A DNA stretch of 64,000 nt. It comes from a virus (Duplodnaviria > Caudoviricetes). The stretch lies in the IMG/VR virus record IMGVR_UViG_3300033068_001747. One strand, written 5' to 3'. Numbering within the stretch: the stretch's first letter is position 1; every line of letters begins with the position of its first letter. Below, piece by piece: positions 4,754 to 63,313 of this stretch. The notes below the pieces were generated by a model, which saw only the letters and a program-made list of their open reading frames with translations, made no database searches and had not been told where the DNA came from. A program made the position numbers and the translations under genes.

Positions 4754-5347
4754 ATGAAATACTTAAAATTATTTGAAAGATTCTCAACATTTGAACATGA
4801 TTTTGGACAATTCAAAATTAAAGTGATTGAAGCAAGTCCCAATAATTATGATGGTGGAATACAAGTAGATTCTGCAACTATTGCTTGTGGTGATAGTGAA
4901 TACTACTTTGAATTACATACACCAGTAGGTGGTGAAGGAGAAGTACATGTAAAATACTTGGCATGTGAAAATGGTAATTCTGAATTTATTAACCAATTTG
5001 GTTTAGAAGAAGATTCATTTCTTAATGAAAATGAATTAAGTGAGTTTCTACAAGTAAATTCACCTGATTGTGTTGGATATGATACTGAAATTGATGGTTA
5101 TGAATTAGAAATTACTGATTTTAATCATGATGGTGGAATGGAATTAGGTACTATAGAAACTATTATAAATGGTGAAGAAATTCAATTTGAAATGATACAA
5201 GATGCTACTACAGGTTTTGGATTTGGAGTTGAATTTGATAGTGATAGAGATGAGAAAAAAGCAAGAGAAATAGGTTTTGAACTCACTGATGAAATAAGAG
5301 AGTACTTATTCAATGAATATGATAGAATATGTGCAGAAAAAAGATAA
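4754..5347 (+). CDS. Acidic hypothetical protein with MKYLKLFE N-terminal tag and an internal two-domain repeat
   Basis: ORF; duplicated segments YDGGIQVDSA...YFEL and HDGGMELGTI...QFEM. Confidence 0.75.
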   Translation: MKYLKLFERFSTFEHDFGQFKIKVIEASPNNYDGGIQVDSATIACGDSEYYFELHTPVGGEGEVHVKYLACENGNSEFINQFGLEEDSFLNENELSEFLQVNSPDCVGYDTEIDGYELEITDFNHDGGMELGTIETIINGEEIQFEMIQDATTGFGFGVEFDSDRDEKKAREIGFELTDEIREYLFNEYDRICAEKR

Positions 5348-5353
5348 ATAAAT

Positions 5354-5932
5354 ATGAAATACTTAAAACTATTTGAAAACTTCTCTGGTAAAATATCTGA
5401 GAACTTACAATACCACATAGATAACAACAAACCAATTGTGGAAAATGTATTTAGACCAGGATCAAATAAATACCTTGACCTAATCAAAGAAGCAAGACAA
5501 TTATTTGATAATAATCAAATTGAATTATCAGAATTAGACACTGAATTATATGAATCAACTGATATAGGAAGATTTGCAGAATATGAAGGTCAGATAGTTG
5601 CACTTGATTTACCAATGGAAACTATTGAAGAGTTAAATGAAGCAGAATACAAAGGTAGAGAAGTAAAGTTAAACTATCCGATGAGAGGTGGTACTAAGAA
5701 ATATCATGTTTTTGTTAAAAATCCTAAAACAGGTAAAGTTAAGAAAATTGCATTTGGTGATGTACACGGTGGTTTAACTGCTAAAGTAAGTGATCCTAAA
5801 GCAAGAAAAGCTTTTGCAGCAAGACATAATTGTGATATGAAGAAAGATAAAACTAAAGCAGGTTATTGGGCTTGTAGAGTAAATAAATATGGACACCTTT
5901 GGGGTGGAAAAACTTATCCTGGTTATTGGTAA
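5354..5932 (+). CDS. Tagged protein with a C-terminal DUF6321-like basic domain
   Basis: MKYLKLFENF start; EAEYKGREVKLN...KKIAFGD...FAARHNC...GYWAC resembles a conserved T4-like phage domain. Confidence 0.65.
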   Translation: MKYLKLFENFSGKISENLQYHIDNNKPIVENVFRPGSNKYLDLIKEARQLFDNNQIELSELDTELYESTDIGRFAEYEGQIVALDLPMETIEELNEAEYKGREVKLNYPMRGGTKKYHVFVKNPKTGKVKKIAFGDVHGGLTAKVSDPKARKAFAARHNCDMKKDKTKAGYWACRVNKYGHLWGGKTYPGYW

Positions 5933-5933
5933 T

Positions 5934-6320
5934 ATGAAATATATAAAATTATTTGAAGAACATAGTGATAAACAATCAGTAGTATCATTCTTACTAGACT
6001 TTGGTATGTTTATAACTTTGAATTTATCTAAAGTAGAGAATGAATCCATAGATGAACAATCTAAATCCGAATTATCAAAAATGTTATCAGAGTTAAGAAA
6101 GCCTCTAATAAATGGGAAAACATTCAGTGAACTAACACTAGATATAAACTCAATAGTAAACAATCCAAAGATTTTATCAGGACTATTCTCTCAAGTAAGA
6201 ACTCTATTGATTTATATAGAACCTAGGATTCAAAAATTTGTAAAAGACAGTGATAAGAAAAATATATGGTTAGATAAAATCAATAACTTTAAAGAAAGAT
6301 ATAAAAATATAGTAAACTAA
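5934..6320 (+). CDS. Hypothetical protein with MKYIKLFEE tag
   Basis: Start re-assigned to ATG 5934, 1 nt after the previous stop. Confidence 0.7.
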   Translation: MKYIKLFEEHSDKQSVVSFLLDFGMFITLNLSKVENESIDEQSKSELSKMLSELRKPLINGKTFSELTLDINSIVNNPKILSGLFSQVRTLLIYIEPRIQKFVKDSDKKNIWLDKINNFKERYKNIVN

Positions 6321-6589
6321 TGTTACCATTTAAAGAGGAAGTAATATCAACTAATGTATTCATTAGAGAGTTTAGTCAAGACACTGACTCTGGAGAGTTT
6401 ATGTGGCATCGTGATAGGGAAGATAGAATAATTGAATCTATTAGTGATACAGATTGGCAAGTACAATTAGACAATGAACTACCTAAAATTATTAAAGGTG
6501 AAGTATTTATACCAATGGGTGTTTACCACAGAGTTATAAAAGGAACTGGAGATTTAAAAATAAAACTAATAAAAAACCCTATTATCTAA
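6320..6589 (+). CDS. Small cupin-like protein
   Basis: WHRDRE...FIPMGVYHRVIKG cupin-type motifs. Confidence 0.6.
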   Translation: MLPFKEEVISTNVFIREFSQDTDSGEFMWHRDREDRIIESISDTDWQVQLDNELPKIIKGEVFIPMGVYHRVIKGTGDLKIKLIKNPII

Positions 6590-6600
6590 TAGGGTTTTTA
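6571..6600. terminator. Bidirectional intrinsic terminator
   Basis: aaaaaaccctatta-tc-taatagggttttt between convergent genes. Confidence 0.75.
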
Positions 6601-14481: not shown

Positions 14482-14491
14482 TATATATTAA
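14482..14491 (-). promoter_or_regulatory. Late-type promoter TTAATATATA for the sheath
   Basis: Exact motif 29 nt before the sheath ATG. Confidence 0.6.
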
Positions 14492-14512: not shown

Positions 14513-15043
14513 CTATTTTTGATTAACATTAGATATTTTTGTGATATTTTCCTTCATATCCTTTTCTATTCTCGCCAAATTATCTTTGTGTTTCTTCTCT
14601 GCAAATGTAAAATCAGTTTGTGTTTTAGTAACTTTCTTCAATAACTCTTGAATTTTCACATTGACTGCTTGTTTCGTAGTAGCATCTGTAGATAACTTTA
14701 ATTCCTCTTGATAATTTTTATTTTCTTGATCCATTTTTAACAAATCACTTTGCATTCTAGCCAAAGTTGAATATTCCACAAGAAATGGATTTCGATCTGG
14801 TCCGTTTTGAACTGCTTGATCTCCTAATATTCTAACTAATTCTCTTTCAAGTTGAACAGAATCTTTAATATTCTTATAAGCATTATCAATCTGAGGTCGT
14901 TTAGTTTTATAATCAGCTAGTTGTTTACTAAGATTTTCCATACTTTGTTTATTCATCTTAATATCAACTGGATCAGTTTCTTCAACCGGTATAGCAATAC
15001 CATCTGCTTCTAAAAATAATTTATAATTTTTTAAATGTTTCAT
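14513..15043 (-). CDS. Coiled-coil protein with MKHLKNYKLFLE tag
   Basis: ORF, heptad-rich. Confidence 0.7.
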   Translation of the reverse strand: MKHLKNYKLFLEADGIAIPVEETDPVDIKMNKQSMENLSKQLADYKTKRPQIDNAYKNIKDSVQLERELVRILGDQAVQNGPDRNPFLVEYSTLARMQSDLLKMDQENKNYQEELKLSTDATTKQAVNVKIQELLKKVTKTQTDFTFAEKKHKDNLARIEKDMKENITKISNVNQK

Positions 15044-17679
15044 TATTGTTTTTTAATTTGGATTCCTGTTTTAGATCTTACCTGTGTTTTTGCAGGTTTA
15101 TTACCTGCTTGTAAAATAACAGCATCTAATTTTGGTTCAGTAGTATTATCAATAGTATAAACTTTTTTATCTTTACTATAAACTAACCAATAAATGTCAG
15201 AAATGTCTTTAAATATAGGTTCAGTTACTTTACCATCATTATCAACAGAAGAAACTTTTATTGTATTATTTAACTTGAAAATATCATTAAACTCATTTAC
15301 TTTAATCATAGTATATTTAGGAGGTAAAGTACCATCTATAGCCAATCCCATTTCAAATGTACCCTTAGCTATATCTTTTTGAGTACCATTCATCTTATTC
15401 AAGTATTTATTTCTATAATAAGGAATTAAAGTATATGACATATAGATTTCACCATTTGAAACCTCATGAATTAAAAATGTTCTTTGTCTTCTCTTACCTT
15501 CCTCATTTGTATAAGCAATTGTAAAAAATGTATTAGGTTTTAAATCAACTCCTTTAATAGGAGGAGCAACTTTACCTAATTCTAACTCTAATTTCTGTTT
15601 AGAACTCTCTAATGTTGCAGCATCTGCTAAATCTTTCTCATCTAATACTGCCATTGCAGTTTGATTATTAGTTCCTGCACCATCACCGAAATATGAATCA
15701 ACAAAGCCAGCAACTTTACCTCTCTCATTACCAGATTTATACAGTTTCTCACCATCTAATATATCATTTATAAATTTATTAAATTGAAGACCTGCGTTAG
15801 GTCTGATTTCCCAATCTCCAGGATTAGAATAATCAGGATTAGTTACCTTTGGTAATCTTAGATTAGCATTCTTAGTAAACAATACCTGATATTTACGATT
15901 CTTTCTTATATCATTAACTGCTTCTTCCCAAGCATCAAACAATTTATTATTTCTATAAGGACCATTTCTACCACTATCACCATCAGAACCACCACCAAAT
16001 GAAGTATATTCAGATAATGTATTTGTATCAACCTTCTCACTTCTTTTAGTAATTGTTTGAACAGTATATAACTTATAAGCTTTTATGAAAAGATTCATTA
16101 TTTCAATGATAGGGTCTAAACTCATAGTTATACCCTCAGGATTTTCCTTTTTCTTAGCTTCTAATTCATCTCTTAACTTAGTAGTTTCCTCTTCTGAGAT
16201 AGTAAATGCTCTAACCTCTTTACAATTTTCATTAAAGAAGTCTAATATTTTCTTAGTAGAATCGGTACTATCACCTTGTACTTCTTGCTCATCATTTGTA
16301 GTTTGATTCTCAACTGGCTTCTCATCAGGTTTACCGGAAGGTAAAATATTTTGTGCTTCTAAAAACGTAAAATAAGAAAGTACCGACTCTTTTTTAACAG
16401 TAACAATAGGCACTTTATTTATCTCTTTTAAAGTAGATACAAATGTTTGTAAAGGAACTTTTAAATCTCCTAAACCACCATATAAGTTCTCTTTTTCAAA
16501 TTGAGATGCTCTTTTAGAAAATCTCGCAATTTTCTCAGCAATAATAACTACTTTATTTCTATCTGATAAAACCTCAATACCTTCATTATAAAGTCTATCC
16601 TTTTCTTGTATTGTTGCCTTTTTATCACCAACCAAATATCTATTTATCTCATTATAAAGATTTTTTATAAGTTCTTTATTTTTACTATCGTTAGAATTTG
16701 TTGCAATATCATTAATTAAATTATAATCAACTGAAATACCTTTTTCCTTAGGTGAAATTAATACTTCAATATCTTTTCTCAATTTATTAAAAGCTTGTGT
16801 TAAGTGATCTTCACCAACAACTGTTTTACCTCTATCTGCAGCACCACCAGTACCAAATGAGTCAGCACCTTCCATAAGAAGAACCATTCCTGAAGGAAGT
16901 GATTGATCATTATTGGTAAATTTAGCTAACTTAGTATTTTTGGTTCTTATTGTGTCAATATCTAATCGATTAGGGTTTTTAGTATTATCACTTTGAATTA
17001 AACTTAATTTATCACCATTCACGGTAGTATATGTTTTCTTTGTTTTACCGTTAGCACCTGTTGATGAACCAGTACTAACTTTCTTATAATTTGCTAATAC
17101 CAAAGCAAGTGCTTTTAGATTTTTAACCATTAAACCATACGAATTAATGTTACCATCTGTACCTTTTTCTTCAGTAGTTTCTGTAGAATTTTGATCTTTA
17201 AATTGGTTTAAGAAATCTCTAAACTTTTTAAGTTCCTCTAGTAAAATCTCTTTTTTATCTAGATTTTTCACATCATTAACTGCTTTAATTGCACCATCTG
17301 TTAATCCTATCAACTCAGATACAGGATGACCATTTTCCACCGCAAATATCAACTCCTTAAAGAAAGAGGATAAAGTTATTCTAAGTAATAATAACTGTTG
17401 ATCACCATCTAGAGAGAATACAACAGATTGGTCTAAAAGATAATCAAATTGCTCTCTTAACCTTTCTGTCAATTTTTTAATTTGCCCAACTTTTCTAGCA
17501 ATTCTTGCTTTTCTAATGATATGATTGATTAGACGTCCTAATAAAGAGTCATTCCAACCAACATCATTTGCAAATGGACCACTATTAAATTCAGCTTCTT
17601 CGTTTATTGACTTGATTTTATTTATAGAGTTAGAGTTTTTCTCTCTAAGAAAATCCTCTCTTTTATTCAAATATCTCAT
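15043..17679 (-). CDS. Large tagged virion-associated protein with a LysM-like insert
   Basis: MRYLNKREDFLRE start; KTYTTVNGDKLSLI...IRTKN...LPSGMVLL is LysM-like. Confidence 0.6.
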   Translation of the reverse strand: MRYLNKREDFLREKNSNSINKIKSINEEAEFNSGPFANDVGWNDSLLGRLINHIIRKARIARKVGQIKKLTERLREQFDYLLDQSVVFSLDGDQQLLLLRITLSSFFKELIFAVENGHPVSELIGLTDGAIKAVNDVKNLDKKEILLEELKKFRDFLNQFKDQNSTETTEEKGTDGNINSYGLMVKNLKALALVLANYKKVSTGSSTGANGKTKKTYTTVNGDKLSLIQSDNTKNPNRLDIDTIRTKNTKLAKFTNNDQSLPSGMVLLMEGADSFGTGGAADRGKTVVGEDHLTQAFNKLRKDIEVLISPKEKGISVDYNLINDIATNSNDSKNKELIKNLYNEINRYLVGDKKATIQEKDRLYNEGIEVLSDRNKVVIIAEKIARFSKRASQFEKENLYGGLGDLKVPLQTFVSTLKEINKVPIVTVKKESVLSYFTFLEAQNILPSGKPDEKPVENQTTNDEQEVQGDSTDSTKKILDFFNENCKEVRAFTISEEETTKLRDELEAKKKENPEGITMSLDPIIEIMNLFIKAYKLYTVQTITKRSEKVDTNTLSEYTSFGGGSDGDSGRNGPYRNNKLFDAWEEAVNDIRKNRKYQVLFTKNANLRLPKVTNPDYSNPGDWEIRPNAGLQFNKFINDILDGEKLYKSGNERGKVAGFVDSYFGDGAGTNNQTAMAVLDEKDLADAATLESSKQKLELELGKVAPPIKGVDLKPNTFFTIAYTNEEGKRRQRTFLIHEVSNGEIYMSYTLIPYYRNKYLNKMNGTQKDIAKGTFEMGLAIDGTLPPKYTMIKVNEFNDIFKLNNTIKVSSVDNDGKVTEPIFKDISDIYWLVYSKDKKVYTIDNTTEPKLDAVILQAGNKPAKTQVRSKTGIQIKKQ

Positions 17680-18377: not shown

Positions 18378-18875
18378 ATGAAAAACTTAAAATTATATGA
18401 GAATTTTTCCGGTAAAATAAAATATACTAAACCCGAAGATCTTGATACACAAGAAGTTGTTGAGTTAGTTGGAATTTTATTTGAATTAAAACCTACTCTA
18501 CCAGATGAATTTCCTAACAAAGATTTATCACCTTTAATCAAAAATGAGGTATCTTATCTATCTGATGATGATAGATTTAATATCGTAGTTGGGTTCAGTG
18601 AAAATGATGTTTATGTAAACAAGGAAGGTGAACTGGTCTCTGGTAAATATAAAACAATATTTAAGGTAAATATCAGTAGAACCGAAAAAGAAAGTTTTAA
18701 ATTATCAGAAGTTAAAGAATACATTCTTTTAACATCACAATTAGTTGAAAAAACTTATGATAAAGTTAAAATGTTAGTTAAGATAAATGAAGAGAAGTTA
18801 TCGATGGAAGATTTTGAGAAATTATCAGATAATGATGAAATAGAAGAAATAACATTTCTTATAAAAATATACTAG
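18378..18875 (+). CDS. Tagged hypothetical protein (paralog family A)
   Basis: MKNLKLYENF; SYLSDD...FKLSEVKEYIL. Confidence 0.7.
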   Translation: MKNLKLYENFSGKIKYTKPEDLDTQEVVELVGILFELKPTLPDEFPNKDLSPLIKNEVSYLSDDDRFNIVVGFSENDVYVNKEGELVSGKYKTIFKVNISRTEKESFKLSEVKEYILLTSQLVEKTYDKVKMLVKINEEKLSMEDFEKLSDNDEIEEITFLIKIY

Positions 18876-18878: not shown

Positions 18879-19457
18879 ATGAAGTATTTACAAACACATG
18901 AGGGGTTTATCAATAAAGTTAAAACATTTATTAAAGATAAACTTAAAGAACAAGAACCAAATACAGAAAATAATATAACTGGTTCTAATGAAAAAAAAGA
19001 TAAATTTAGAGAATTTGTAATGGATTGTATTACTTATCTACAAGATGATTTTAATATAGATATTAAATTTGTTGAAAATTCAGTTGAAAGAGGATATAAA
19101 GGTGAAACAATATTTGGTGAATTAAAAACCGAATCCAGAGTTAAAATACTAAAACAAGTTAGACAAGGTGACCAGAATAAAATAGAGGAAAATCAATTCA
19201 TTATTGATGATGTTAGAGATCAACTTTTATCTATGGTAGAACTGGCTTTAAGACATTATAATATATTAGATGTTTATTTTGTTTACAGAGGTGAATTAGA
19301 AACAATTGAAAATGATAACCCATTTACTGTAGCCACAGGTATTGCATTAGATATGCTTAAACCGGGAGAACCTCAAAAAGTAAATAAAAAAGATTTTGAA
19401 AAATTACCTTATGATACAATAACTTCCGAAGTAAATGTCATATTCAAACTATTATAA
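18879..19457 (+). CDS. Tagged hypothetical protein (paralog family A)
   Basis: MKYLQTHEGF; DCITYLQDD...FIIDDVRDQL. Confidence 0.7.
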   Translation: MKYLQTHEGFINKVKTFIKDKLKEQEPNTENNITGSNEKKDKFREFVMDCITYLQDDFNIDIKFVENSVERGYKGETIFGELKTESRVKILKQVRQGDQNKIEENQFIIDDVRDQLLSMVELALRHYNILDVYFVYRGELETIENDNPFTVATGIALDMLKPGEPQKVNKKDFEKLPYDTITSEVNVIFKLL

Positions 19458-22519: not shown

Positions 22520-22539
22520 AAGTAAACGGTTTTTTACAA

Positions 22540-22547
22540 TATATATA
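22540..22547. promoter_or_regulatory. Palindromic TATATATA late-type element between TerS and TerL
   Basis: Only candidate promoter in the 51 nt divergent gap. Confidence 0.5.
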
Positions 22548-48948: not shown

Positions 48949-49242
48949 ATGATGTTTAAAATAGTTAATCAATCATTATATTTATGTGATAATATAGGTA
49001 ATCTTGGAAGAAGAATAGCAGAGAATGTTGCCTTTGGTACTTATGACGATTCACAAAAGATTTTTTTAATAACTAACATAGATGGTAAATTAGAAACCAA
49101 AGATATAATGGGTAATAACATTAGAGTTTTATCTCAAGGAGTATTAGAAGCAAGATTCTCAGGAACAGACATTTTAGTTCGTAAAAGAGACGGTAAAAAC
49201 GTTCTAATAGATAAAATGGGTAATATCAAAAGATATTTTTAA
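48949..49242 (+). CDS. Small beta-repeat hypothetical protein
   Basis: Repeated D-x-[IM]-G-N units. Confidence 0.6.
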   Translation: MMFKIVNQSLYLCDNIGNLGRRIAENVAFGTYDDSQKIFLITNIDGKLETKDIMGNNIRVLSQGVLEARFSGTDILVRKRDGKNVLIDKMGNIKRYF

Positions 49243-50852
49243 ATTATTCTTAAATACCTTGGTGTAGAATCAAAAAGATCCGTTTGAATAGAAAGTGCAT
49301 ATCTCATAATACCAGTAATCGCAATATTTGCATCAGTTGGCTCTTCTGACTGAAGAATTGCAAGTGCAACCAATAATTGAATTGATTGTAATTTAGATAT
49401 TAATCTATTCTTAATATTATTTACCTCACTACCTTCTTCTAAGTTACTATACATTTTACTAGCAGCACCACTTTTATTTTTTGTAGATAATTGATCTATA
49501 AGATTGGGTACTAGATCTAATAAATCATTATGTGCTGATAAAATCATATCTCTCAACTCATCTTCAGACTTTGTAACTAATCTAGAATATAGATCAATAT
49601 TTAAGCCATATCTAGTAATAAATCCATTTCTTTCAAAAGATGAAATAATAGAATTAAGTGTTATTTTACCGTGTCTTGAAGATCTTCCTAAAATATCACC
49701 ATCAATATTTCTAGCTTTTCCAGTATCAGAAGAATCAAAAACTATATCTCTGGATGAACTTTCTACTTCTCCTACATCATTAGTTCCTTCAGACATCCAA
49801 ACAGATTTAACTCTTAATTTAGATGCAATACCTTTTAACGGATCATCAGTTATAATAAACCTATCAATTGTAAAATCAGGTAGTTTTTTATTTAACTCTT
49901 TATTAACAATAATCCTATCACCTTCTTTAAATTTTTTAAGTGATACAGGAATAAGTTGATTACTATCAAAATAATGGTCTAATAACTTAACTAAACCACC
50001 TATAGAAGTTTGAGATTTTATTTGTCTATTGATTTCGGATAACGATCTTTCAACAACGATATAAACATCTGCTGGACAAAATTTAGAGAAATTAACTTTA
50101 GAGTTAGATAATTTTTTTAATTCATTATACTTTTTAACAATGTTAACAACAGGTGAAATAGGGTCATTATTAGATTCAAGAAAAACTAAATACTTTCTAT
50201 TATTATTTACTCTTGGAAATATTCCTTTAAAATCAATTAAAATATCAGGGACTCTAATAAAAGTATTTAACCAATCTCTATTAGTTGATAAACTATCTAT
50301 CATCTCACGTGTTAAAGTAAACTTTGGATCTAAATAAATACCAATTCTTTTAAATACTTCATCATTTTTATTAACGTAATTTTCCCAAAAATCAATAACT
50401 CTTTCCTTATCCATTATCTCACCAGGATATCTTAATCTAAATGCAATAAATAAACATTGTATCGCCTCATACTTTCTTGTCAAAACACCAGGTCCTACTG
50501 CACCAAACTCAGAAGTTTTTGTTACTTGATTTAGTTTAAATCCTTTACTACCAGAAAATAAAACATCATCATATTTCGTATGACCAGGTGGCTTAGTAAA
50601 TACTTTCCTTGCCTTATCAGAAGAATAATGATTATTTGTACTAATTGCATCAGCTGCTTTGGCAGGTGTAATCTTTTTACCATCCACCTTCACAGTAGTT
50701 ATGTTTTTTTCACCTTCACCTTTAATTGAAAGTTTTGCTGGCTTTTCTTTTAGTTTTTTAACTAATATATCTCCACGTTTTTCACCACCTCGATCTTTAT
50801 CTAACTCGGTTAAATTAAGCTCAACTTCTTCAAATAATTTTAAGTATTTCAT
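49239..50852 (-). CDS. Tagged protein with a PD-(D/E)xK restriction-endonuclease-like motif
   Basis: MKYLKLFEE at 50852; YE..QC, KFCPADVYIV...LIPVSLKK. Confidence 0.55.
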   Translation of the reverse strand: MKYLKLFEEVELNLTELDKDRGGEKRGDILVKKLKEKPAKLSIKGEGEKNITTVKVDGKKITPAKAADAISTNNHYSSDKARKVFTKPPGHTKYDDVLFSGSKGFKLNQVTKTSEFGAVGPGVLTRKYEAIQCLFIAFRLRYPGEIMDKERVIDFWENYVNKNDEVFKRIGIYLDPKFTLTREMIDSLSTNRDWLNTFIRVPDILIDFKGIFPRVNNNRKYLVFLESNNDPISPVVNIVKKYNELKKLSNSKVNFSKFCPADVYIVVERSLSEINRQIKSQTSIGGLVKLLDHYFDSNQLIPVSLKKFKEGDRIIVNKELNKKLPDFTIDRFIITDDPLKGIASKLRVKSVWMSEGTNDVGEVESSSRDIVFDSSDTGKARNIDGDILGRSSRHGKITLNSIISSFERNGFITRYGLNIDLYSRLVTKSEDELRDMILSAHNDLLDLVPNLIDQLSTKNKSGAASKMYSNLEEGSEVNNIKNRLISKLQSIQLLVALAILQSEEPTDANIAITGIMRYALSIQTDLFDSTPRYLRII

Positions 50853-50900: not shown

Positions 50901-52298
50901 ATGAACAATAAATTATCAAAATACGAACAATATCTTTTAGAACAAGATATACAAATGTTATCAGAAGCAAAAATTGTATTCGACGACAAATTTAATGCAC
51001 TCCTTAAAAGAATAAAAACACCAATTTCTAAAAATTTAAGAATGTTAAATGGAACTGAAGTTGATACAAATTATAATTATATCACATTTGATGTAGATAA
51101 AGAAGATAAAGTTTTCTTTATTCCAGATGATAAAGCCAAAAAAGTAGATGATCCATACACATTAAAAAAATCAGATATGAATATTGGTAGATTTGTAAGA
51201 GCAATTCTAACTAAAGCAGGACACGAAGTTAATAATAAAGAACTAGAAGAATTTGTAAGTAAATATAAAGCATCTATTCTAGTAGAAAAAGAATCTTTTA
51301 AAAGATTTGAAATAGTTAAAGGTGATGATATAAAATACTGGTATAATCTTAATCAGTATTATAGAGGAGATGGTACATTAGGTTCTTCTTGTATGAGATA
51401 TGCAAAATGTAGAGACTTTTTAGACATATACTCAAGAAATCCTGAAAGATGTTCTTTGATAATCTTAAAATCAAAAGGAGACGATTATAAAATAACCGGT
51501 AGAGCTTTACTTTGGTTAGATGATAAAGACAGAAAATTTATGGATAGAGTATATATTGAAGATTCTTCAGATACTCAACTATTTATTGATTATGCAATTG
51601 ATAACGGATTCTATTATAAGAAAAATCAAACTTATCAAATAGGTGATCCTATCATGTTTAATGGACAAGAACTAACTAAAGAAGATAGTTGGATTTACAT
51701 TACTTTAGAAAACGGTGGAGAATTTAGCAAATATCCTTATATGGATACTGTCAAATATTATACTCCTTATAGAAATCTACTAACAAATAACTGGACAGAT
51801 TCATACGAATATGAACTAACCGATACCGAAGGTGGTAATGGTTCTTGTTCTAACTGCGGTGGTTCGGGAGAAGTAGAATGTGAAGATTGTTGTGGTTCAG
51901 GAGAATACAGATGTTGGAGATGTGAAGGTGAAGGTGAAGTAGAATGTAGAGAATGTGATGGTTATGGAGAAGTAGATTGCCATGTTTGTGATGGTCATGG
52001 AGAAGTCGAATGTCCAGTTTGTGATGGTTATGCAGAAGTAACTTGTCCTCAATGTGATGGATCTGGTGAGTTTGAAGAAGGTCCTTGTGACAATTGTGAC
52101 TCATCAGGTAAAATACCTTGTTATAATTGTGAAACTGGTCAACTTACTTGCCCAGAATGTGAAGGAAGTTGTAAAGAAGAATGTGAAGATTGTGAAGGTA
52201 AAGGACTAGAAGAATGTACCTCTTGTGACGGAGATGGAACAACAGAGTGTCAAGAGTGTGGTGGAGATGGAAGAATAATATGTTATGAATGTAGTTAA
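50901..52298 (+). CDS. Paralog family B with 14 CxxC Zn motifs
   Basis: GSSCMRY, GRALLW, MDRVY, YPYMDT; 14 CxxC. Confidence 0.75.
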   Translation: MNNKLSKYEQYLLEQDIQMLSEAKIVFDDKFNALLKRIKTPISKNLRMLNGTEVDTNYNYITFDVDKEDKVFFIPDDKAKKVDDPYTLKKSDMNIGRFVRAILTKAGHEVNNKELEEFVSKYKASILVEKESFKRFEIVKGDDIKYWYNLNQYYRGDGTLGSSCMRYAKCRDFLDIYSRNPERCSLIILKSKGDDYKITGRALLWLDDKDRKFMDRVYIEDSSDTQLFIDYAIDNGFYYKKNQTYQIGDPIMFNGQELTKEDSWIYITLENGGEFSKYPYMDTVKYYTPYRNLLTNNWTDSYEYELTDTEGGNGSCSNCGGSGEVECEDCCGSGEYRCWRCEGEGEVECRECDGYGEVDCHVCDGHGEVECPVCDGYAEVTCPQCDGSGEFEEGPCDNCDSSGKIPCYNCETGQLTCPECEGSCKEECEDCEGKGLEECTSCDGDGTTECQECGGDGRIICYECS

Positions 52299-52303: not shown

Positions 52304-52822
52304 ATGATATACTTAAAAAAATTTAATGAGTCTAAAAAGCTCACAGAAGATGATATTACTTATTCAGTATTAGAAATATTGGATGAGGGGTTTACTTTTA
52401 ATGGAAATGCTTCTACATTTAACTTTAATTCTCAAATGAACATGATTTCATTTGTTAGAAGATGTGATACTAATAAAAATGAAATATTACCAGGTGAACG
52501 TAAATATGCAGATCCTCGTGATAAAGGAAGATGGATTTTAGCAGTAACAGGAATTCAAAGAAATGGTGACTATTCGGGATTTCAATATGGTAATGTTTGG
52601 AGAAAAAGAAACTATGAAATTCCTAAAGAACAAGAATACCTACGTAATATAGGATTTGAATCTGCAATTAAATTATTAAGACTAACTGATTATAAATACG
52701 TAACCTTATCAATACATTCAATACCAGGTGGATCTTGGAAAGAACCATTTTTTACAACAACAGAGTGTATTAAGTTTCAATTCAGTAATAATTTTGATGT
52801 TTCACCAATATCAGAAGATTAA
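52304..52822 (+). CDS. Tagged hypothetical protein (family A-like N-terminus)
   Basis: MIYLKKFNES...EILDEGF. Confidence 0.65.
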   Translation: MIYLKKFNESKKLTEDDITYSVLEILDEGFTFNGNASTFNFNSQMNMISFVRRCDTNKNEILPGERKYADPRDKGRWILAVTGIQRNGDYSGFQYGNVWRKRNYEIPKEQEYLRNIGFESAIKLLRLTDYKYVTLSIHSIPGGSWKEPFFTTTECIKFQFSNNFDVSPISED

Positions 52823-52851: not shown

Positions 52852-53358
52852 ATGATAACAATAATAGCTGCAGCAGGAGAAAATAACTCTCTAGGTAAAG
52901 ACAACGACTTAGTTTGGCACTTACCAGACGACTTTAAAAGATTTAAACAACTTACATCAGGTAATTATATACTTATGGGTAGAAAAACATTTGAAAGTTT
53001 TCCTAAACCATTACCTAATAGAAAACATTTAATTATAACAAGACAGGAAAACTATTCTGTACCTGAAAATTGTTTTGTTTTTGATAGTATTTCTAAAGCA
53101 TTAGATTTTATTCCATTTACTGGAACTATTGAAAAACCAACTACAGATGTTTGGATAATTGGTGGTGGAGAAATCTATAAACAATCAATGGAAATAGCAG
53201 ATAGAATTGAACTAACAAGAGTACATTCCGAATTTGAAGCAGATACTTTCTTTCCAGAAATTGGTAAAGAATGGGAATTAGTAAATGAAGAACATCATAG
53301 TTCTGATGAAAAACACAAATACAATTTTACATATTTAACTTATGACAAAAGAATATAA
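52852..53358 (+). CDS. folA: Dihydrofolate reductase
   Basis: LVWHLPDDFKRFK, MGRKTFES, PLPNR, IIGGGEIY, ADTFFP. Confidence 0.95.
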   Translation: MITIIAAAGENNSLGKDNDLVWHLPDDFKRFKQLTSGNYILMGRKTFESFPKPLPNRKHLIITRQENYSVPENCFVFDSISKALDFIPFTGTIEKPTTDVWIIGGGEIYKQSMEIADRIELTRVHSEFEADTFFPEIGKEWELVNEEHHSSDEKHKYNFTYLTYDKRI

Positions 53359-53602
53359 AAAACAAATTGTAAAGGATTATCTTATCAAGCTAGAAAAGAA
53401 TCAAGCTAGAATTATAATAAATGGAATTGATGATTTTAGTGATCATCCTTTTAGACCTTGGGTTAAAATATTTTATAGTGTTATAAAAAGAAAAAATAAA
53501 TTATACACTAAAGTAAATAAAGTATGGTCTGAATATGGGACTTTTGATAGTTTATTTATCTCTGAAATTAGAGACCAACGATTAAATGATTTAGGTGTTT
53601 AA
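53342..53602 (+). CDS. Small protein with C-terminal RD-motif
   Basis: Ends IRDQRLNDLGV. Confidence 0.6.
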   Translation: MTKEYKKQIVKDYLIKLEKNQARIIINGIDDFSDHPFRPWVKIFYSVIKRKNKLYTKVNKVWSEYGTFDSLFISEIRDQRLNDLGV

Positions 53603-54342: not shown

Positions 54343-54624
54343 ATGAGAAATAAATTTGACCTTAATAAACCTGTTTATCATAAATCTTATGGTAAAATGA
54401 CTATCGAACGATACTTAGAAGCCAATTTAGATGAACCAGATACAGAAAATCAATATGATTGTGAGTATGGTTATGAAAATATCTGGGTAGGTGATAGACC
54501 AAAATTTAAAAGAAATACATCACTTTTTAAAGAATCAGATTTAATGTCAGAAGAAGATTACAACGCTTGGTTACTATCAAATAAAAGAGAAGAAACATTG
54601 AAAAATATATTAAAAGATACCTAA
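54343..54624 (+). CDS. Small protein with C-terminal RD-motif
   Basis: KREETLKNILK; TAACTTTG at 54331-38 ends 4 nt before the ATG. Confidence 0.65.
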   Translation: MRNKFDLNKPVYHKSYGKMTIERYLEANLDEPDTENQYDCEYGYENIWVGDRPKFKRNTSLFKESDLMSEEDYNAWLLSNKREETLKNILKDT

Positions 54625-54656: not shown

Positions 54657-55040
54657 ATGAAAAAAACACTAATCAATTGCAAGATTACTTATCAACAAGA
54701 ATCACTTAAAAACACTTTAACTGCAATTTTTTATGAACATTCGAGGAATAAATTTATTAAACTTCATGGTAAAATCTCAACAGAACTAACTCAAGATTTA
54801 CATCACAGAAGTTCACACATTTCACAACTAGATTTTACCAACTTCAAAGAAGATGTAGAACCAACAGAAGAAGAATTAGTAAAAATTTATCAAGAACTAC
54901 TTTCAAAGAAAAATTCTGGTAACTCTTTAAGATATAAAGTATCTAAACTTGAAGACTTTGAAATAAAAGCATTTGAACTTTTATCAGAAAAATTAACTTC
55001 ATATTTTAGAAATGAAAAATTAAATTCTATTGGAGTTTAA
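54657..55040 (+). CDS. Hypothetical protein with C-terminal RD-motif
   Basis: Ends FRNEKLNSIGV. Confidence 0.65.
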   Translation: MKKTLINCKITYQQESLKNTLTAIFYEHSRNKFIKLHGKISTELTQDLHHRSSHISQLDFTNFKEDVEPTEEELVKIYQELLSKKNSGNSLRYKVSKLEDFEIKAFELLSEKLTSYFRNEKLNSIGV

Positions 55041-55066: not shown

Positions 55067-55444
55067 ATGGAAGAAATAATAGGAAATATGGAACATACAG
55101 AAGTGAGTAGAACACTTATTGACCGAATACTTGGTCGAAAAAAAGACATTGATAAGATTGTTAAAGTTAGAAAACAAATCATTACAATTAAAAAAAGTTT
55201 TAATGATGCTAAACTAACTAGACGTGTAGGTACATTTGATAATGTATATTATAAAATGTTTACCTTAATGAACGAAAGTGTAATGGATGAAAAATTAGTT
55301 TATATGAACTTAGGCGGTGAAATACTATTAAAGAAACTAACTGATACAAGAGACGAACTTGTCGAACTTTTGAAGAGTGTCATCGATATATCAGATATAC
55401 AGAAAGAGATTAGAGAAGATAAACTTAAATCAATTGGAATATAA
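55067..55444 (+). CDS. Hypothetical protein with C-terminal RD-motif
   Basis: Ends IREDKLKSIGI; TATATTTG at 55054-61. Confidence 0.65.
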   Translation: MEEIIGNMEHTEVSRTLIDRILGRKKDIDKIVKVRKQIITIKKSFNDAKLTRRVGTFDNVYYKMFTLMNESVMDEKLVYMNLGGEILLKKLTDTRDELVELLKSVIDISDIQKEIREDKLKSIGI

Positions 55445-55773
55445 TGGATAAAACAAGTGAAATAGTTTTCAACGGAAAGTTTGAAAAAGGTATGATCTTT
55501 CAAGAAATGTTGACATTTTGGCTAGGTATATTAGATATAACCGATGATGGTGTAATAATTACATTACAAGGTAATCGTATTAAGGAAATGAAACTAAAGA
55601 AATATACCAAAGATGAACTTATTACTTTTATGAAGTACGAAACAATTGATAATAAGTGTTGGTTAGATTATAGAAGTACTGAACCTGATAGAGTACGAGA
55701 TTGGTTTATACAAAAAGTAGAACACGATTCAATAGAAAATCGAAGAGATATAAAAATTGATTTATTGACATAA
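55444..55773 (+). CDS. Hypothetical protein with C-terminal RD-motif
   Basis: Ends RRDIKIDLLT. Confidence 0.6.
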   Translation: MDKTSEIVFNGKFEKGMIFQEMLTFWLGILDITDDGVIITLQGNRIKEMKLKKYTKDELITFMKYETIDNKCWLDYRSTEPDRVRDWFIQKVEHDSIENRRDIKIDLLT

Positions 55774-56826: not shown

Positions 56827-57312
56827 ATGATTTATTTAAAAACTTTTGAAAAATATTCGGTTACTGAAGCAAATTTTAAAGATAAGCTTTACAATGCAAG
56901 TACCATTATAACTGGAAAGCCAATGACTTGGGAAATAAACAAAGAAAAAAATGAAAGACTTACTAGAGAAGTTGCACAAATTCTTATAGATAGAGGATAT
57001 AATCTAAATGAAGAAGGTGGAACTATGACAGATGGTTCAGAAATTTGGTCACTTCAAGATCAAGGAATGCAACCAATTGTCTTTAAAGCCAAACCTGATT
57101 ACTATGATAAAAGCATATTACAAATTGTAGTTAGTTTTTATTTCCCAAACAGAGAACATAGTGGTGAAAGTGAAATAATTGATATAGATGAAAATGACTT
57201 AGAAAGAACTGCAGATAAAGTATCAGAAGTTCTTGAAAGACTTAGAGCATTAGGTCATAGAGGTAATACATTTAGTAAACAAGGTAGTATTAAACTTCGA
57301 CTTGAAGACTAA
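56827..57312 (+). CDS. Tagged hypothetical protein
   Basis: MIYLKTFEKY. Confidence 0.7.
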   Translation: MIYLKTFEKYSVTEANFKDKLYNASTIITGKPMTWEINKEKNERLTREVAQILIDRGYNLNEEGGTMTDGSEIWSLQDQGMQPIVFKAKPDYYDKSILQIVVSFYFPNREHSGESEIIDIDENDLERTADKVSEVLERLRALGHRGNTFSKQGSIKLRLED

Positions 57313-57313: not shown

Positions 57314-57341
57314 AAAAAGAGAGACGAAAGTCTCTTTTTTT
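57314..57341. terminator. Intrinsic terminator (copy 2 of a direct repeat)
   Basis: aaaaagagagac-gaaa-gtctctttttt. Confidence 0.8.
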
Positions 57342-57762
57342 ATTTTTTATAACTAATCATTAAACCTAATCCCCATAGACTAGTATTCTCAACATTATCT
57401 TTAATAACTTGTTCTAATTTATAAAATTTGAAACCATTATGACTATCATCAGTATTAAAAAAAACTTCACCAACTTGACCATTTCCCGAAAAATTATCCA
57501 ACTCATATCTTCTTTCTAACATCTGTAAAAATGGAATATAATAATTCTTTACATCATTCCAATAAAATAGATCATATTCTTCTTGCCTTGGTAAATTAAG
57601 ATTTATCTTAAAAACTCTGATGTCTTTTCTCCAAGTATCTTCATAAACATCAATCTCATATCCCTCATCCAAAAGATAAGCTAAAGAGCTATTACAGAAA
57701 TCTTTTAACTCTTCTACTTCATCAGGTTGTAAATCTTCATTAAATCTTTTTAAAAATCTCAT
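57340..57762 (-). CDS. Tagged protein (paralog family A)
   Basis: MRFLKRFNE; FCNSSLAYLLDEGY...FYWNDVKNYYIPFL. Confidence 0.7.
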   Translation of the reverse strand: MRFLKRFNEDLQPDEVEELKDFCNSSLAYLLDEGYEIDVYEDTWRKDIRVFKINLNLPRQEEYDLFYWNDVKNYYIPFLQMLERRYELDNFSGNGQVGEVFFNTDDSHNGFKFYKLEQVIKDNVENTSLWGLGLMISYKK

Positions 57763-57780: not shown

Positions 57781-57963
57781 TTATTTTAATAACTTATCAA
57801 TCTTTTGATCCCTAATATAAGCTAAACTATTTCTATAAATTTTTTCAATTGTATTTTGTGGATCATAACCATACTTCTGTAAATCCATAATTTGTTCTCT
57901 TGTTAAAGGTAAAGTAATACCATTACAAACTACCATATGGTTATCATCAAACTCTATTTTCAC
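57781..57963 (-). CDS. Small protein with C-terminal RD-motif
   Basis: Ends IRDQKIDKLLK. Confidence 0.6.
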   Translation of the reverse strand: MKIEFDDNHMVVCNGITLPLTREQIMDLQKYGYDPQNTIEKIYRNSLAYIRDQKIDKLLK

Positions 57964-58763: not shown

Positions 58764-58930
58764 ATTCTTTTTATTTTTTCTCTTCGTTTATTTTTTCTCA
58801 TATTTTTCTTAGCTAACTTCTTTAATCTATAAGCCATAACATGATAAGACGATAATGTTTCATCATCTAAATATGTTTTATCACCTATCAGATCAAGATG
58901 ATCAATTATTACTGGTTTATATTCTTTCAT
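58733..58930 (-). CDS. Small basic protein, variant C-terminal motif
   Basis: KRREKIKRICLK. Confidence 0.5.
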   Translation of the reverse strand: MKEYKPVIIDHLDLIGDKTYLDDETLSSYHVMAYRLKKLAKKNMRKNKRREKIKRICLKDLSYEL

Positions 58931-59373
58931 TTGAATAAATCTTTTATTATAAAATCTCTTTTAATACTTAATGGTAATAAGTTTATAATTTGTTTTTTAC
59001 TAACTATCTTAGCGGCTGTACCAAAACTACCATTAAAGTTATATAATTCGGTTAAATCATTTCTCAATGAGAATCCATATGCAGTTTTCTTAGTTTTATT
59101 AAAATTATCTTGTAAATAAACCTTATCAACTACATTATTTCTAACCATAATCCAAATTATATATTGTTCATTAAATACCAATTTCCAATGTGAATCTTGT
59201 TTTGGATGTATTTTTTTTTCTTTTACCTGAACATACCTACCTGTTTTATTATCAATTACATGCTTAGTAGTATGATCATCCAGTATCATAGCTTCTCCAT
59301 CATTATATGGATTTGGCTTATGAAAAGGTATTTTAGTAAATCCTAACTCTCGTAACTTTTTAGTTGCATTCAT
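58927..59373 (-). CDS. Hypothetical protein with C-terminal RD-motif
   Basis: Ends KRDFIIKDLFK; TATATTTG at 59378-85 ends 4 nt before the ATG. Confidence 0.65.
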   Translation of the reverse strand: MNATKKLRELGFTKIPFHKPNPYNDGEAMILDDHTTKHVIDNKTGRYVQVKEKKIHPKQDSHWKLVFNEQYIIWIMVRNNVVDKVYLQDNFNKTKKTAYGFSLRNDLTELYNFNGSFGTAAKIVSKKQIINLLPLSIKRDFIIKDLFK

Positions 59374-59392
59374 AAAACAAATATAGTAATAA

Positions 59393-61156: not shown

Positions 61157-61160
61157 TAAA

Positions 61161-61610
61161 ATATATTTTGTAATTTTACATAAAGGCTCGTTCGCACCCA
61201 TGCACATAGGCCACTTAAATATAATTGAAAAAGCTGAAAGAATTTTCGGTAAAGGAAATGTTATAGTTGCAATTGGAGTAAATCCCGATAAAAACTATTT
61301 AGAAAGACAAGATCCAAAAGAACTTGAAAAGACTATAAATCGTCCTGTTATTACTTATGCTAAGTTTCTACACGAACTTGTAGAAGATTATGAGAAAGAA
61401 GGTTTAAAAGTAGTTATAATCAGAGGATTAAGAAATGGTACTGATTTAGATTATGAAGTAAATCAATTTAGATTTATAAACGACTTTAAGAAAGATATAA
61501 ACGTAGTTTATATTACTTGTGACCAAGAATTTGAACATATTTCTTCTTCTGCAATTAGAAAGATTGAACAATTTGGTGGACCAGATATGGTAAAAAAATA
61601 TCTTTTATAA
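61161..61610 (+). CDS. coaD: Phosphopantetheine adenylyltransferase-like protein; start codon uncertain
   Basis: GSFAPMHIGH, IIRGLRN..D..YE, HISSSAIR; homology extends upstream of the first ATG (61200). Confidence 0.7.
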   Translation: MYFVILHKGSFAPMHIGHLNIIEKAERIFGKGNVIVAIGVNPDKNYLERQDPKELEKTINRPVITYAKFLHELVEDYEKEGLKVVIIRGLRNGTDLDYEVNQFRFINDFKKDINVVYITCDQEFEHISSSAIRKIEQFGGPDMVKKYLL

Positions 61611-61813
61611 TGGTAGATTATATCGGTTGGTGTGAAGAATGTGCGGAGTTTAAAACTATAGTGATAGATACTGAAAAAAATTATAAAACTTCATATCACG
61701 AAGCAACATTTATGTGTAGTGAATGTACACAAAAACAAATAATAGAGAAAAGAGATAAAAAATTAAACCAGTTACTAAAACGTAGCTGGTTTGATAAATT
61801 ATTTAGAAATTAG
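61610..61813 (+). CDS. Small Zn-ribbon protein with RD-motif
   Basis: CEEC...CSEC; KRDKKLNQLLK. Confidence 0.6.
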   Translation: MVDYIGWCEECAEFKTIVIDTEKNYKTSYHEATFMCSECTQKQIIEKRDKKLNQLLKRSWFDKLFRN

Positions 61814-62252
61814 CAAATCTTTTAATTCTTTTTAGAAGGGTATCAGGTGTTTTATCTGTAACAGTTATATCAATAACCCTAATCATACCTGGTTTTATTT
61901 TATCCTTAACTATAGAATTAAGTGAGTGACCAATCCAGGCTTGTTGTGTAGAATATGAACCATATTTGACTCCTTTCGAGTATTCATAGAAATAAATTCT
62001 TGAAACATCATAGTCTTTATCAAGCCTTTTAAGAAAAGGAATAATATAATCCTTTACATTATCCCAATTAAATAGTTTATCGTTAGTATGTAAAGGTAGA
62101 TTTCTTTCATTAGGATTATTAGAAATAATAACTGAAAACGTATTCTTTTTATCTTCACCTGTCATAACTACCTCAACTTGAAAGTCTTCTTGATCTAATA
62201 AATAAGCTAGATTTGTCTCACAATAATCTATAAGTTCATCCCATTTTCTCAC
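61803..62252 (-). CDS. Paralog family A protein lacking the N-terminal tag
   Basis: YCETNLAYLLDQ...FNWDNVKDYIIPFL; GTG start. Confidence 0.65.
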   Translation of the reverse strand: MRKWDELIDYCETNLAYLLDQEDFQVEVVMTGEDKKNTFSVIISNNPNERNLPLHTNDKLFNWDNVKDYIIPFLKRLDKDYDVSRIYFYEYSKGVKYGSYSTQQAWIGHSLNSIVKDKIKPGMIRVIDITVTDKTPDTLLKRIKRFANF

Positions 62253-62254
62253 AA

Positions 62255-63313
62255 TTAAACATTTCTTTTATTTGAAAGATAATCAGTATAATTTGCTACA
62301 ATTGAATTTACTTTTTTGAAGTCACGTGGAGTTTTACCAGTAAAATCAACATCTAAGTAAAATAAAAATTCAAAGAAATCTAAATTATATTTATTTATAT
62401 CTCTTACAAGATTTTTATTATTTAAAACCTGAATTATTTTTTCTTGTGTGATTTTATCATTCATATCTTTTAGATAACCGTTCTTGATCATCCATTTTTT
62501 TAGACCGTGAAATCTAACATAAACCTCCGCAGGTGAAGTTAAATACTTAGTATCTTTTTTATCATCAAACATTCCAGAAAACTGATTTTTGAAATCATCT
62601 TCTGCCTCTTTAAATACCTTTTTACCTTCTTCATCATGAACATCCTCATATTTAACATCCACTGCTAATTCAACTAATTTTCTAGAGTAAAAGTCAATTT
62701 TTTCTTGTAATCTTTTCTTACCTTCAGGAGTTCCTAATACAATGTCCTTATCTAAAATATCAACTATATTTGTAAGTTCACTATAATCTTGACTATCAAA
62801 TTCATCACCTCCTAAAATATCATCAACTAAATGTCTAAGTTCATGAATAATGATATGAGGTGCAGCAAATGAACTAAGTTTCTTCTCATCAATTATAATT
62901 GCAGTAACTAATTGCATTTTCTCATTAAAGTGTCTAAAGTAACAAGCCATAGTACCTTCATTCTCACCAATTATCTCCATTGTCTTACTATCAACACAAA
63001 CAAACTTTATATCTTTAACAATAGATATGACTTTTTGTTTTTTGATAGAGTCAATATTATTAGTTGTTTCAATATCTTTGATTAGTTCTGCTCTAATCTT
63101 TTCAATAAAAGCACTCTCACTTTTTGAAGGTTGATTATTTATATCGTTTATTGTAGCATCTATTTCCTTACCTGTCATATGAGGTAAAGTTTTCTTACCA
63201 AAATAATGATTTATCCCAATTGCAATAGCTAATCCAACAATAAGTTGTTTCCAGGTTACTTCAACCTCGTTTTTTTCATTGAGTAACTCCTCACTAGATT
63301 TAATATGCTTCAT
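62255..63313 (-). CDS. Tagged, membrane-anchored zincin metallopeptidase-like protein
   Basis: MKHIKSSEELLNE at 63313; TM LIVGLAIAIGI; HELRH; downstream PAEVYVR. Confidence 0.65.
   Translation of the reverse strand: MKHIKSSEELLNEKNEVEVTWKQLIVGLAIAIGINHYFGKKTLPHMTGKEIDATINDINNQPSKSESAFIEKIRAELIKDIETTNNIDSIKKQKVISIVKDIKFVCVDSKTMEIIGENEGTMACYFRHFNEKMQLVTAIIIDEKKLSSFAAPHIIIHELRHLVDDILGGDEFDSQDYSELTNIVDILDKDIVLGTPEGKKRLQEKIDFYSRKLVELAVDVKYEDVHDEEGKKVFKEAEDDFKNQFSGMFDDKKDTKYLTSPAEVYVRFHGLKKWMIKNGYLKDMNDKITQEKIIQVLNNKNLVRDINKYNLDFFEFLFYLDVDFTGKTPRDFKKVNSIVANYTDYLSNKRNV

Follow-up and report, generated by a model that had tools for sequence, protein, structure and literature searches.

What does it mean when many genes of a single phage begin with nearly the same peptide, many others end with a different one, and none carries both? 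This question is raised by a 64,000-nucleotide stretch of DNA, hereafter the window, which comprises bases 32001-96000 of the 132,473-bp IMG/VR viral contig IMGVR_UViG_3300033068_001747. A preliminary description of the window had reported some 20 open reading frames (ORFs) with a MKYLKLFE-type N-terminus (the N-tag) and 15-17 others with a C-terminal R-[DEN]-x-K peptide (the C-tag), and had proposed that this pair of portable peptides sorts the proteins of the phage. We confirm the observation, which proved stronger than first described. Further, we suggest that both tags are address or docking labels, each read by a partner of its own. This is the best overall explanation of the patterns set out below, and one that we hold tentatively, judging it a little short of evenly balanced.

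Two terminal peptides and two promoter classes

Genes were called with our own greedy ATG-start procedure, which gave 177 genes on the contig. A gene was scored as N-tagged if its product began with M-[KRI]-[YHNFW]-[LIV]-K-x-[FY]-[END]-x-[FY] or a close variant, and as C-tagged if it contained R-[DEN]-x(1-2)-[KR..]-[IL]-x-x-[IL]-[LG] with the Arg about 10 residues ahead of the stop. By these definitions the contig holds 26 N-tag and 22 C-tag genes, and no gene with both. Within the window the N-tag is borne by 16 ORFs and, in looser form, by three Cys-rich paralogues; the C-tag is borne by 15 ORFs (Table 1). These numbers are close to those originally given. The N-tag is a 10-residue peptide with the consensus M-K-[YH]-[LI]-[KR]-x-[FY]-[ENK]-x-F, often followed by an acidic linker. 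The C-tag spans 10-12 residues, with the consensus (S)-x-[IL]-R-[DE]-x-[KR]-[LI]-x-x-[IL]-[LG]-x before the stop.

Both motifs are strongly tied to protein ends. All nine matches to the strict N-tag core among the roughly 40,500 residues scanned lie within the first five residues of a protein, and a control set of 778 internal Met residues yielded one loose match and no strict match. For the C-motif, 22 of 30 matches fall in the last 25 residues, where 11% would be expected. Shuffling the terminal 20 residues gave a mean of 0.006 N-tags (maximum 1) against 14 observed, and a mean of 0.45 C-tags (maximum 4) against 20 observed, so that both tags stand far above the frequencies of shuffled termini. 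The spacing of the C-tag is also tightly held: the Arg lies exactly 10 residues from the stop in 28 of 51 carriers and 9-12 residues from it in 47. The distance is kept in proteins that range from 50 to 730 aa.

The same pattern recurs in LR745206, a complete 635-kb genome of an uncultured phage that was analysed with the same script. Of its 929 genes, 83 carry the N-tag, 121 carry the C-tag and none carries both; the earlier statement that no ORF has both tags thus holds in two genomes. Across this material the N-tag is found on about 9-15% of genes and the C-tag on about 12-13%. When gapped residue triplets of all termini were compared with those of protein interiors, the top N-terminal triplets were K..K.F, KYL and K.FE, and the top C-terminal ones R..KI, RD.K and R...I...L. 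More broadly, IMG/VR contigs of 6 to 676 kb contain the exact 24-nt DNA of the N-tag in 103 stretches, and at these loci there are 207 N-tag and 33 C-tag genes, again without any gene bearing both. Among deposited phages, blastn searches with tag DNA found gene-start matches only in huge uncultured phages, all other matches being chance-like. In the closest cultured phages sampled, neither tag was found, whether in the first 50 kb of the Tenacibaculum phage PTm1 or in 43 kb of the Flavobacterium phage MaF61, a single MKYIKFLE-like start in the PTm1 segment apart.

It had also been proposed that recognisable housekeeping enzymes are free of tags. This is the case for TerL, ClpP, NusA, DHFR, TrxB and aminoacyl-tRNA synthetase-like proteins, and fails for a ClpC-like unfoldase encoded on the contig, which bears an N-tag.

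The contig has a G+C content of 28% and a CheckV completeness of about 60%. Its tail sheath protein (10334-14452) is 57-60% identical to the sheath proteins of the uncultured phages LR745206 and LR756502 (635-642 kb), and is distantly related to those of Lak phages and of cultured phages of Flavobacteriia. The host of this very large uncultured phage is likely a member of the Bacteroidota; its nearest cultured relatives have hosts among the Flavobacteriia. The contig further encodes a T4-type portal (gp20 family), a T4-type TerL (22571-24715), a gp44-like clamp loader and a gp55-type late sigma factor (124 aa, PHROG 234; L104:5124-5498(-), outside the window). Near-identical DNA is present in DNA sequencing runs of wastewater, sludge and freshwater metagenomes, and in three metatranscriptome runs the phage is represented by fragmentary contigs only.

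Each tag belongs to its own class of transcription unit. Unbiased 8-mer enrichment returned AATATATA / TAATATAT as the top upstream motif (late-type, [AT]ATATATA), and unbiased k-mer enrichment gave TAATATATA as its main form. This motif precedes the genes for the sheath, TerL, the portal and a 1934-aa protein, and also those for topoisomerase IV subunit A and a metallophosphoesterase. Given the gp55-type sigma factor and the position of the motif ahead of portal, sheath and TerL, the most plausible reading of the AATATATA-type motif is that of a late promoter in the style of T4. In T4 itself, the late promoter consensus is TATAAATA. The second motif, TAnnTTTG, we take to be the housekeeping -7 motif of Bacteroidota. 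Labelling the two classes late and early, respectively, is reasonable on these grounds.

On the contig, [AT]ATATATA units hold all 26 N-tag genes and one of the 22 C-tag genes (Fisher p = 1e-12), and C-tag genes are concentrated in TAnnTTTG units relative to other genes (odds ratio 5.2, p = 0.001). These tests carry the caveat that class was assigned from the motif and a simple operon rule, and that operon neighbours are not independent. The association is replicated in LR745206. There, late-motif units contain 73 of the 83 N-tag genes against 16 of the 121 C-tag genes (p = 5e-28), and none of these 16 exceptions has a late motif directly upstream; TAnnTTTG units contain 62 of 121 C-tag genes against 212 of 725 others (p = 3e-6). 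The link between tag and promoter class noted in the preliminary description is therefore borne out in both genomes. Mutual exclusivity follows largely, though not wholly, from this split: the probability that no gene has both tags is about 5e-6 if class is disregarded, and about 0.004 once class is given.

Both promoter motifs show a sharply bimodal distance to the ATG, of either 4-5 nt or about 19-25 nt (examples of the shorter spacing are the motifs at 18365-18372 and 21264-21271). In LR745206, 88 late and 29 TAnnTTTG motifs stop 4-5 nt ahead of the start codon. Since these motifs end so close to the ATG, transcripts with no leader, or almost none, may be common in both classes. A further observation concerns the sigma factor, which ends in ...GNGLHSI, an ending that we take to differ from the clamp-binding tail of T4 gp55.

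Selection on peptides and portability between proteins

Conserved DNA at gene borders is known from T4-related phages, and the tags could in principle be such elements, with the peptides as by-products. The PeSLs of T4-type phages, mobile regulatory cassettes with a promoter and a stem-loop, lie where genes adjoin and are a driver of modular shuffling (PMC2839356, PMC4122927). Like the tags they are conserved elements that border variable genes and are tied to promoters and gene turnover. The recurrence of exact tag DNA in 103 viral stretches, the promoter motifs that stop 4-5 nt before the ATG of possibly leaderless transcripts, and a preference for TAC at the Tyr of position 3 could all be accommodated by a PeSL-like cassette or by a translation signal in the mRNA. 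However, PeSL elements are conserved as intergenic DNA, whereas the tags are coding and their substitutions stay within residue classes ([LIV], [FY], [END]). Conserved tag positions vary between synonymous codons (TAT/TAC, TTT/TTC, TTA/CTA/ATT/GTT, GAA/GAG), and codon identity at shared residues is close to that expected from codon usage, at 0.590 against 0.550 for 120 LR745206 C-tags and 0.612 against 0.569 for 51 strict LR745206 N-tags. Further, nine of the 26 N-tag genes on the contig lack a promoter motif directly upstream and are placed behind another gene; the synonymous codons and these promoterless genes together argue against both a PeSL-like cassette and an mRNA signal. The DNA contexts downstream of C-tags differ, and the N-tag core also occurs inside proteins and at one C-terminus (see below). 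These patterns of substitution and placement show both tags to be selected as peptide, not as DNA, and leave a role as DNA-level elements very improbable.

Selection on the tags is also seen among homologues. Orthologues at 30-70% identity keep the tag pattern, and in the family of 55067-55444 the middle of the protein is variable, in contrast to the final 17 residues, which hardly change. In an AlphaFold model of this protein (pLDDT 71) the C-tag forms its own helix (residues 109-122) behind a loop, and the three residues that end the chain are extended; the N-tag of 5354-5932 was modelled at pLDDT <50. The C-tag thus appears, from the one carrier modelled, to be a terminal helix under strong purifying selection.

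Outside the tags, most carriers on the contig share no BLAST similarity. Without their tags, the 207 N-tag carriers of the IMG/VR set form 112 clusters, as expected for the portable peptides that had been claimed. Searches of carriers against Pfam and PHROGs revealed no common family. In the wider set, N-tag bodies with Pfam domains include BspA-type LRR, ankyrin, SET, zeta-toxin-like kinase, pterin-4a dehydratase and metallopeptidase proteins. The ClpC-type unfoldase of the contig (L106:6747-8795(-), 682 aa, outside the window) is a clear case, as its MKKLKVYEEF start replaces the Clp N-domain ahead of two AAA+ modules and a VGF ClpP-docking loop. Its orthologue in LR745206 has no clear tag, which counts against the reading as a label. 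The conserved Lys-rich body of 5354-5932 has 3,497 homologues, with 70-92% identity among the best 120. Short forms of this family join tag variants straight to the body, and long forms place an acidic, Cys-rich insert of about 130 residues between the two and contain an internal K-x-E-K-F-E-S-F copy some 55-73 residues in. Nearly every C-tag carrier is a small orphan protein encoded outside the late units; in LR745206, three of 121 match Pfam and ten of 121 match PHROGs, one of them ACP-like.

Could the tags instead be the last traces of common ancestry, that is, structural parts of a fold retained by fast-diverging tandem paralogues? Carriers often lie in tandem arrays, some are still detectable as paralogues (18378/18879, 78332/80878 and the trio that includes 37143), and small phage proteins diverge fast. 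Homologues in LR745206 exist for 13 of the 26 N-tag genes and 5 of the 22 C-tag genes, against 78 of 129 other genes, and tagged genes turn over faster than untagged ones. Against descent from one protein, the bodies have unrelated folds (AAA+ unfoldase, LRR, SET, kinase, pterin dehydratase, ACP-like), an insert can part tag from body, and the C-tag keeps its distance to the stop in proteins of very different length. That the C-tag is modelled as a separate helix, and that in one family the tag outlasts the middle of the protein, points the same way. We consequently regard shared ancestry as rather improbable, and continue with the reading of both tags as labels.

The N-tag and the capsid-targeting sequence of T4

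The closest precedent for the N-tag that we can identify is the capsid-targeting sequence (CTS) of T4. The first 10 residues of T4 IPIII suffice for targeting, which is directed by residues 4 and 7, and residues 8 and 10 direct processing by gp21, which cleaves after L/I-x-E (PMC9026906). The internal proteins of T4 are diverse and have the CTS alone in common (PMC3012670). By analogy, we suggest that the N-tag works like a CTS, the reading that we prefer at somewhat less than even odds, although we do not classify it as a CTS. It would bind the prohead or an assembly component, and a large, fast-changing set of late proteins would thereby be taken into the particle.

The likeness extends to several features. 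As in T4 IPI-III and Alt, a peptide of about 10 residues is found at the N-terminus of unrelated, fast-evolving proteins, with two aromatic or hydrophobic key positions three residues apart. If the N-tag is helical, a single hydrophobic face would comprise its residues 3, 4, 7 and 10. Judged by promoter motif, its carriers belong to the late class. T4-type genes for portal, terminase and late sigma factor are present in the phage, and one for a T4-type major capsid protein (MCP) in the relative. In LR745206 a portal, a gp23-family MCP and a protease/scaffold candidate of 707 aa, weakly matched to gp21 (20 bits, below the Pfam cut-off), lie together at 193127-202434. Neither gp21 nor gp23 was detected on the contig, which stops just past the portal.

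Several findings weigh against capsid targeting or set the N-tag apart from the T4 CTS. In sequence, the N-tag resembles the T4 CTS only in the M-K start and the Phe at position 7. Carriers number in the tens per genome rather than a handful, some of them have 700-880 aa, and the 83 in LR745206 would make a large load for each head. N-tag bodies are acidic, with a median pI of 4.8, unlike the internal proteins of T4, which are basic. The motif [LI]-x-E occurs at tag positions 6-8 in just six of 83 LR745206 tags, and neither [LI]-x-E nor [SAG]-x-E is enriched beyond composition after the tag. (The DNA pattern used to collect the IMG/VR set forced Leu at tag position 6; its count of 128 of 184 tags with L/I-F-E is biased, and was not used.) Lastly, the MCP and the protease candidate of LR745206 carry no tag.

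Some of these points would also fit a docking helix for another late process, such as recruitment to a chaperone or assembly factor, a compartment or proteolytic control. The bodies are acidic and are often large enzymes, no cleavage site is conserved, some carriers lie in tail-gene operons (14513 and 15043 are upstream of the sheath gene), and the products of the phage include Clp components and Cys-rich proteins of the DnaJ type. Yet the T4 precedent fits the length, position, aromatic spacing, carrier diversity and late class of the N-tag (PMC9026906), and the effector-like domains among the bodies suit cargo that is ejected. We therefore consider a docking helix of this kind unlikely, if well worth attention, and keep capsid targeting as the preferred reading of the N-tag. 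A role as a ClpS N-degron was considered and rejected, as His is common at position 3; a Met-Lys start is also expected to be retained.

Two other observations concern N-tag genes or their neighbours. The 284-aa product of 20418-21272(+) has a tag-like C-terminal end, K-x-x-K-T-F-E-S-F, which is kept in its LR745206 orthologue; the N-tag core can thus sit at a C-terminus too. The gene next to it, at 21276, starts with MKNIKTFESF. The three Cys-rich paralogues (37143, 38588 and 50901) each have about 465 aa and C-terminal DnaJ-type CxxCxGxG zinc-finger repeats, and had no matches in Pfam or PHROGs.

The C-tag and its putative reader

The C-tag has an invariant Arg with an adjacent acid, a Lys three residues on, hydrophobic residues at 4, 7 and 8, and a frequent Ser at -3. 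These features, together with the fixed distance to the C-terminus, suggest a specific reader that acts near the chain end. Whether the C-tag is indeed recognised near the free C-terminus by one shared reader we regard as evenly poised. Candidates for such a reader would be a hub of host or phage origin, or the ClpS / ClpC-like / ClpP machinery of the phage itself.

C-terminal recognition peptides with a single partner have precedents, among them the ssrA-type and MuA-type Clp degrons, the ClpX-binding tail of SspB and the cargo-loading peptides of encapsulins, which bind the inner face of an HK97-fold shell. They comprise about 10 residues at the extreme C-terminus and are portable, as is the C-tag, and each is read by one partner, as the C-tag may be; in sequence, the C-tag is not known to match any of them. 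For encapsulin cargo the likeness is confined to position and length, and the early-class carriers of the C-tag would be unsuited to capsid loading.

The Clp machinery deserves particular mention. The window encodes ClpS (24963-25247(-)) and ClpP (36375-37112(+)), the contig adds the ClpC-like unfoldase, and LR745206 encodes two paralogues of ClpP besides one ClpS and the unfoldase. ClpP and ClpS have been recorded in jumbo phages, with host proteins as their presumed targets (PMC7824862). Within the shared-reader hypothesis, the phage Clp machinery may be that reader, with the C-tag as a degron or adaptor handle, and this narrower version we think unlikely. The Clp genes are spread over mixed promoter classes, and we know of no degron that resembles the C-tag motif, both of which speak against it. 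In LR745206, neither a PDZ domain nor a ClpX zinc-finger domain was found. Separately, the [IL]-G-[IV] ending was considered as a mimic of the IGF/IGL ClpP-docking motif and rejected, since it is present in 14 of 51 tags and leaves the invariant Arg-acid-x-Lys unexplained.

Alternatively, the C-tag might be an amphipathic helix that self-associates or binds membranes or nucleic acids, comparable to the SHOCT domain (PF09851 / PF20612), another short helical C-terminal module of diverse prokaryotic proteins. The helix is short, and on a helical wheel its hydrophobic residues (-1, 4, 7 and 8) share a face with basic ones. SHOCT_2 was matched weakly by one of 15 carriers (E 0.007), but none of the 121 LR745206 carriers matched a SHOCT model at E 0.001. 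SHOCT is a helical hairpin of about 28 residues, whereas the C-tag has about 14 residues in one helix. It would also seem unhelpful for more than 100 different proteins to bundle promiscuously, and a specific reader would better account for the invariant Arg with its acidic neighbour and for the constant spacing to the carboxyl end. An amphipathic role is accordingly improbable in our view. A complex prediction for two unrelated C-tag proteins, 53342-53602 and 57781-57963, scored 0.00, a result that is uninformative either way. We return, then, to the shared reader as the favoured account of the C-tag.

Joining the two labels, a temporal sorting code can be envisaged, although as a whole it is quite improbable. 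N-tagged late effectors, around a tenth of the proteome, would be loaded into the capsid and delivered to the next cell, and more than 100 C-tagged early orphans would be directed to one reader, for example ClpS/ClpC/ClpP, which would dock them or clear them at the switch from early to late expression. The preliminary description, made without searches, had named no precedent for such a pair. That assessment needs revision for the N-tag, for which the T4 CTS is a precedent (PMC9026906, PMC3012670); for the C-tag and for the pairing, no description was found in the literature searched. Nor did the same searches yield an account of one or the other tag for this clade. We accordingly see the N-tag as a variation on the T4 principle, and the C-tag as a handle at the C-terminus that has apparently not been described before.

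In the 635-kb phage, over one gene in five is marked by one or other tag, and nearly all of these genes are orphans with nothing else to hint at their function. Should the tags prove to be address labels, they would divide hundreds of unknown proteins of huge phages into candidates for virion cargo and early proteins with a shared fate or partner, and could serve as experimental handles. If capsid targeting is correct, the N-tag would extend the head-loading principle of T4 to a scale not yet reported. If a shared reader exists, the C-tag would be, within the literature searched, a new kind of common handle on early proteins of phages.

Table 1. Tagged genes of the window, with two late-type motifs ahead of the sheath and TerL genes (positions in window coordinates)
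Feature	Position	Strand	Length (aa)	Tag	Remarks
N-tag	4754..5347	+	197	MKYLKLFERF	late motif 4723-4730, 23 nt ahead of ATG
N-tag	5354..5932	+	192	MKYLKLFENF	conserved basic body; no promoter motif directly upstream
N-tag	5934..6320	+	128	MKYIKLFEEH	1 nt past preceding stop
N-tag variant	14513..15043	-	176	MKHLKNYKLFLE	directly upstream of tail sheath gene; orthologue MKYLKKYKIFLE
N-tag variant	15043..17679	-	878	MRYLNKREDFL	late motif 17702-17711
N-tag	18378..18875	+	165	MKNLKLYENF	late motif 18365-18372, 5 nt ahead of ATG
N-tag	18879..19457	+	192	MKYLQTHEGF	weak paralogue of 18378-18875
N-tag	21276..21863	+	195	MKNIKTFESF	late motif 21264-21271, 4 nt ahead of ATG
N-tag	26817..27347	+	176	MKHVKAFERF	orthologue MKHIRTYENY
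N-tag	30915..31586	+	223	MNKLKKYNDF	
N-tag	43760..44266	-	168	MKYIKLFEGI	late motifs 44271-44278, 44297-44304
N-tag	48507..48716	-	69	MRYLKKFNEN	
N-tag	49239..50852	-	537	MKYLKLFEEV	late motif 50858-50865
N-tag	52304..52822	+	172	MIYLKKFNES	no promoter motif directly upstream
N-tag	56827..57312	+	161	MIYLKTFEKY	
N-tag	57340..57762	-	140	MRFLKRFNED	late motif 57767-57774, 4 nt ahead of ATG
Looser N-tag-like	37143..38534	-			Cys-rich paralogue; late-motif unit
Looser N-tag-like	38588..40018	-			Cys-rich paralogue; late-motif unit
Looser N-tag-like	50901..52298	+			Cys-rich paralogue; late-motif unit
C-tag	27383..27724	-	113	IRRDFILTKYVK	
C-tag	34727..35149	-	140	FRDYKISEVLK	
C-tag	35153..35653	-	166	IRDKKINDLLK	
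C-tag	41051..41584	-	177	IREEKLNKLLK	
C-tag	41560..41937	-	125	RREEQINKVL	20 residues from end; TAnnTTTG 41942-41949
C-tag	45473..45838	+	121	YRDKILTKLGI	
C-tag	45835..46224	+	129	MRDKKIEEII	
C-tag	53342..53602	+	86	IRDQRLNDLGV	
C-tag	54343..54624	+	93	KREETLKNILKDT	TAnnTTTG 54331-54338, 4 nt ahead of ATG
C-tag	54657..55040	+	127	FRNEKLNSIGV	sole C-tag gene with upstream late-type motif
C-tag	55067..55444	+	125	IREDKLKSIGI	tag nearly invariant in 28 of 29 aligned homologues
Looser C-tag	55444..55773	+	109	NRRDIKIDLLT	
C-tag	57781..57963	-	60	IRDQKIDKLLK	
C-tag	58927..59373	-	148	IKRDFIIKDLFK	TAnnTTTG 59378-59385
C-tag	61610..61813	+	67	KRDKKLNQLLK	20 residues from end
[AT]ATATATA late-type motif	14482..14489	-			29 nt upstream of tail sheath gene
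Late-type motif	22538..22547	+			23-25 nt upstream of TerL

Three features of the surrounding genes may be added. The two C-tag genes at 35153 and 34727 belong to an operon led by TAnnTTTG, the first gene of which encodes a Peptidase M50 (site-2 protease family; 35655-36257(-)); they are followed by a gene for a 273-aa protein (33879-34700) and a NusA homologue (32579-33811). A third common C-terminal tail, L-T-x-E-E-K-x-F-L-D, corresponds to a known family, DUF6576 (Pfam PF20216), with matches in 17776-18348(+) (E 8e-10) and 27717-28334(-) (E 1e-6); the tail is also present on a contig gene at window coordinate 66067. Finally, a LAGLIDADG / I-TevI-type homing endonuclease-like gene adjoins one for a C-5 cytosine DNA methylase (46256-47032(+), 47513-48481(+)).

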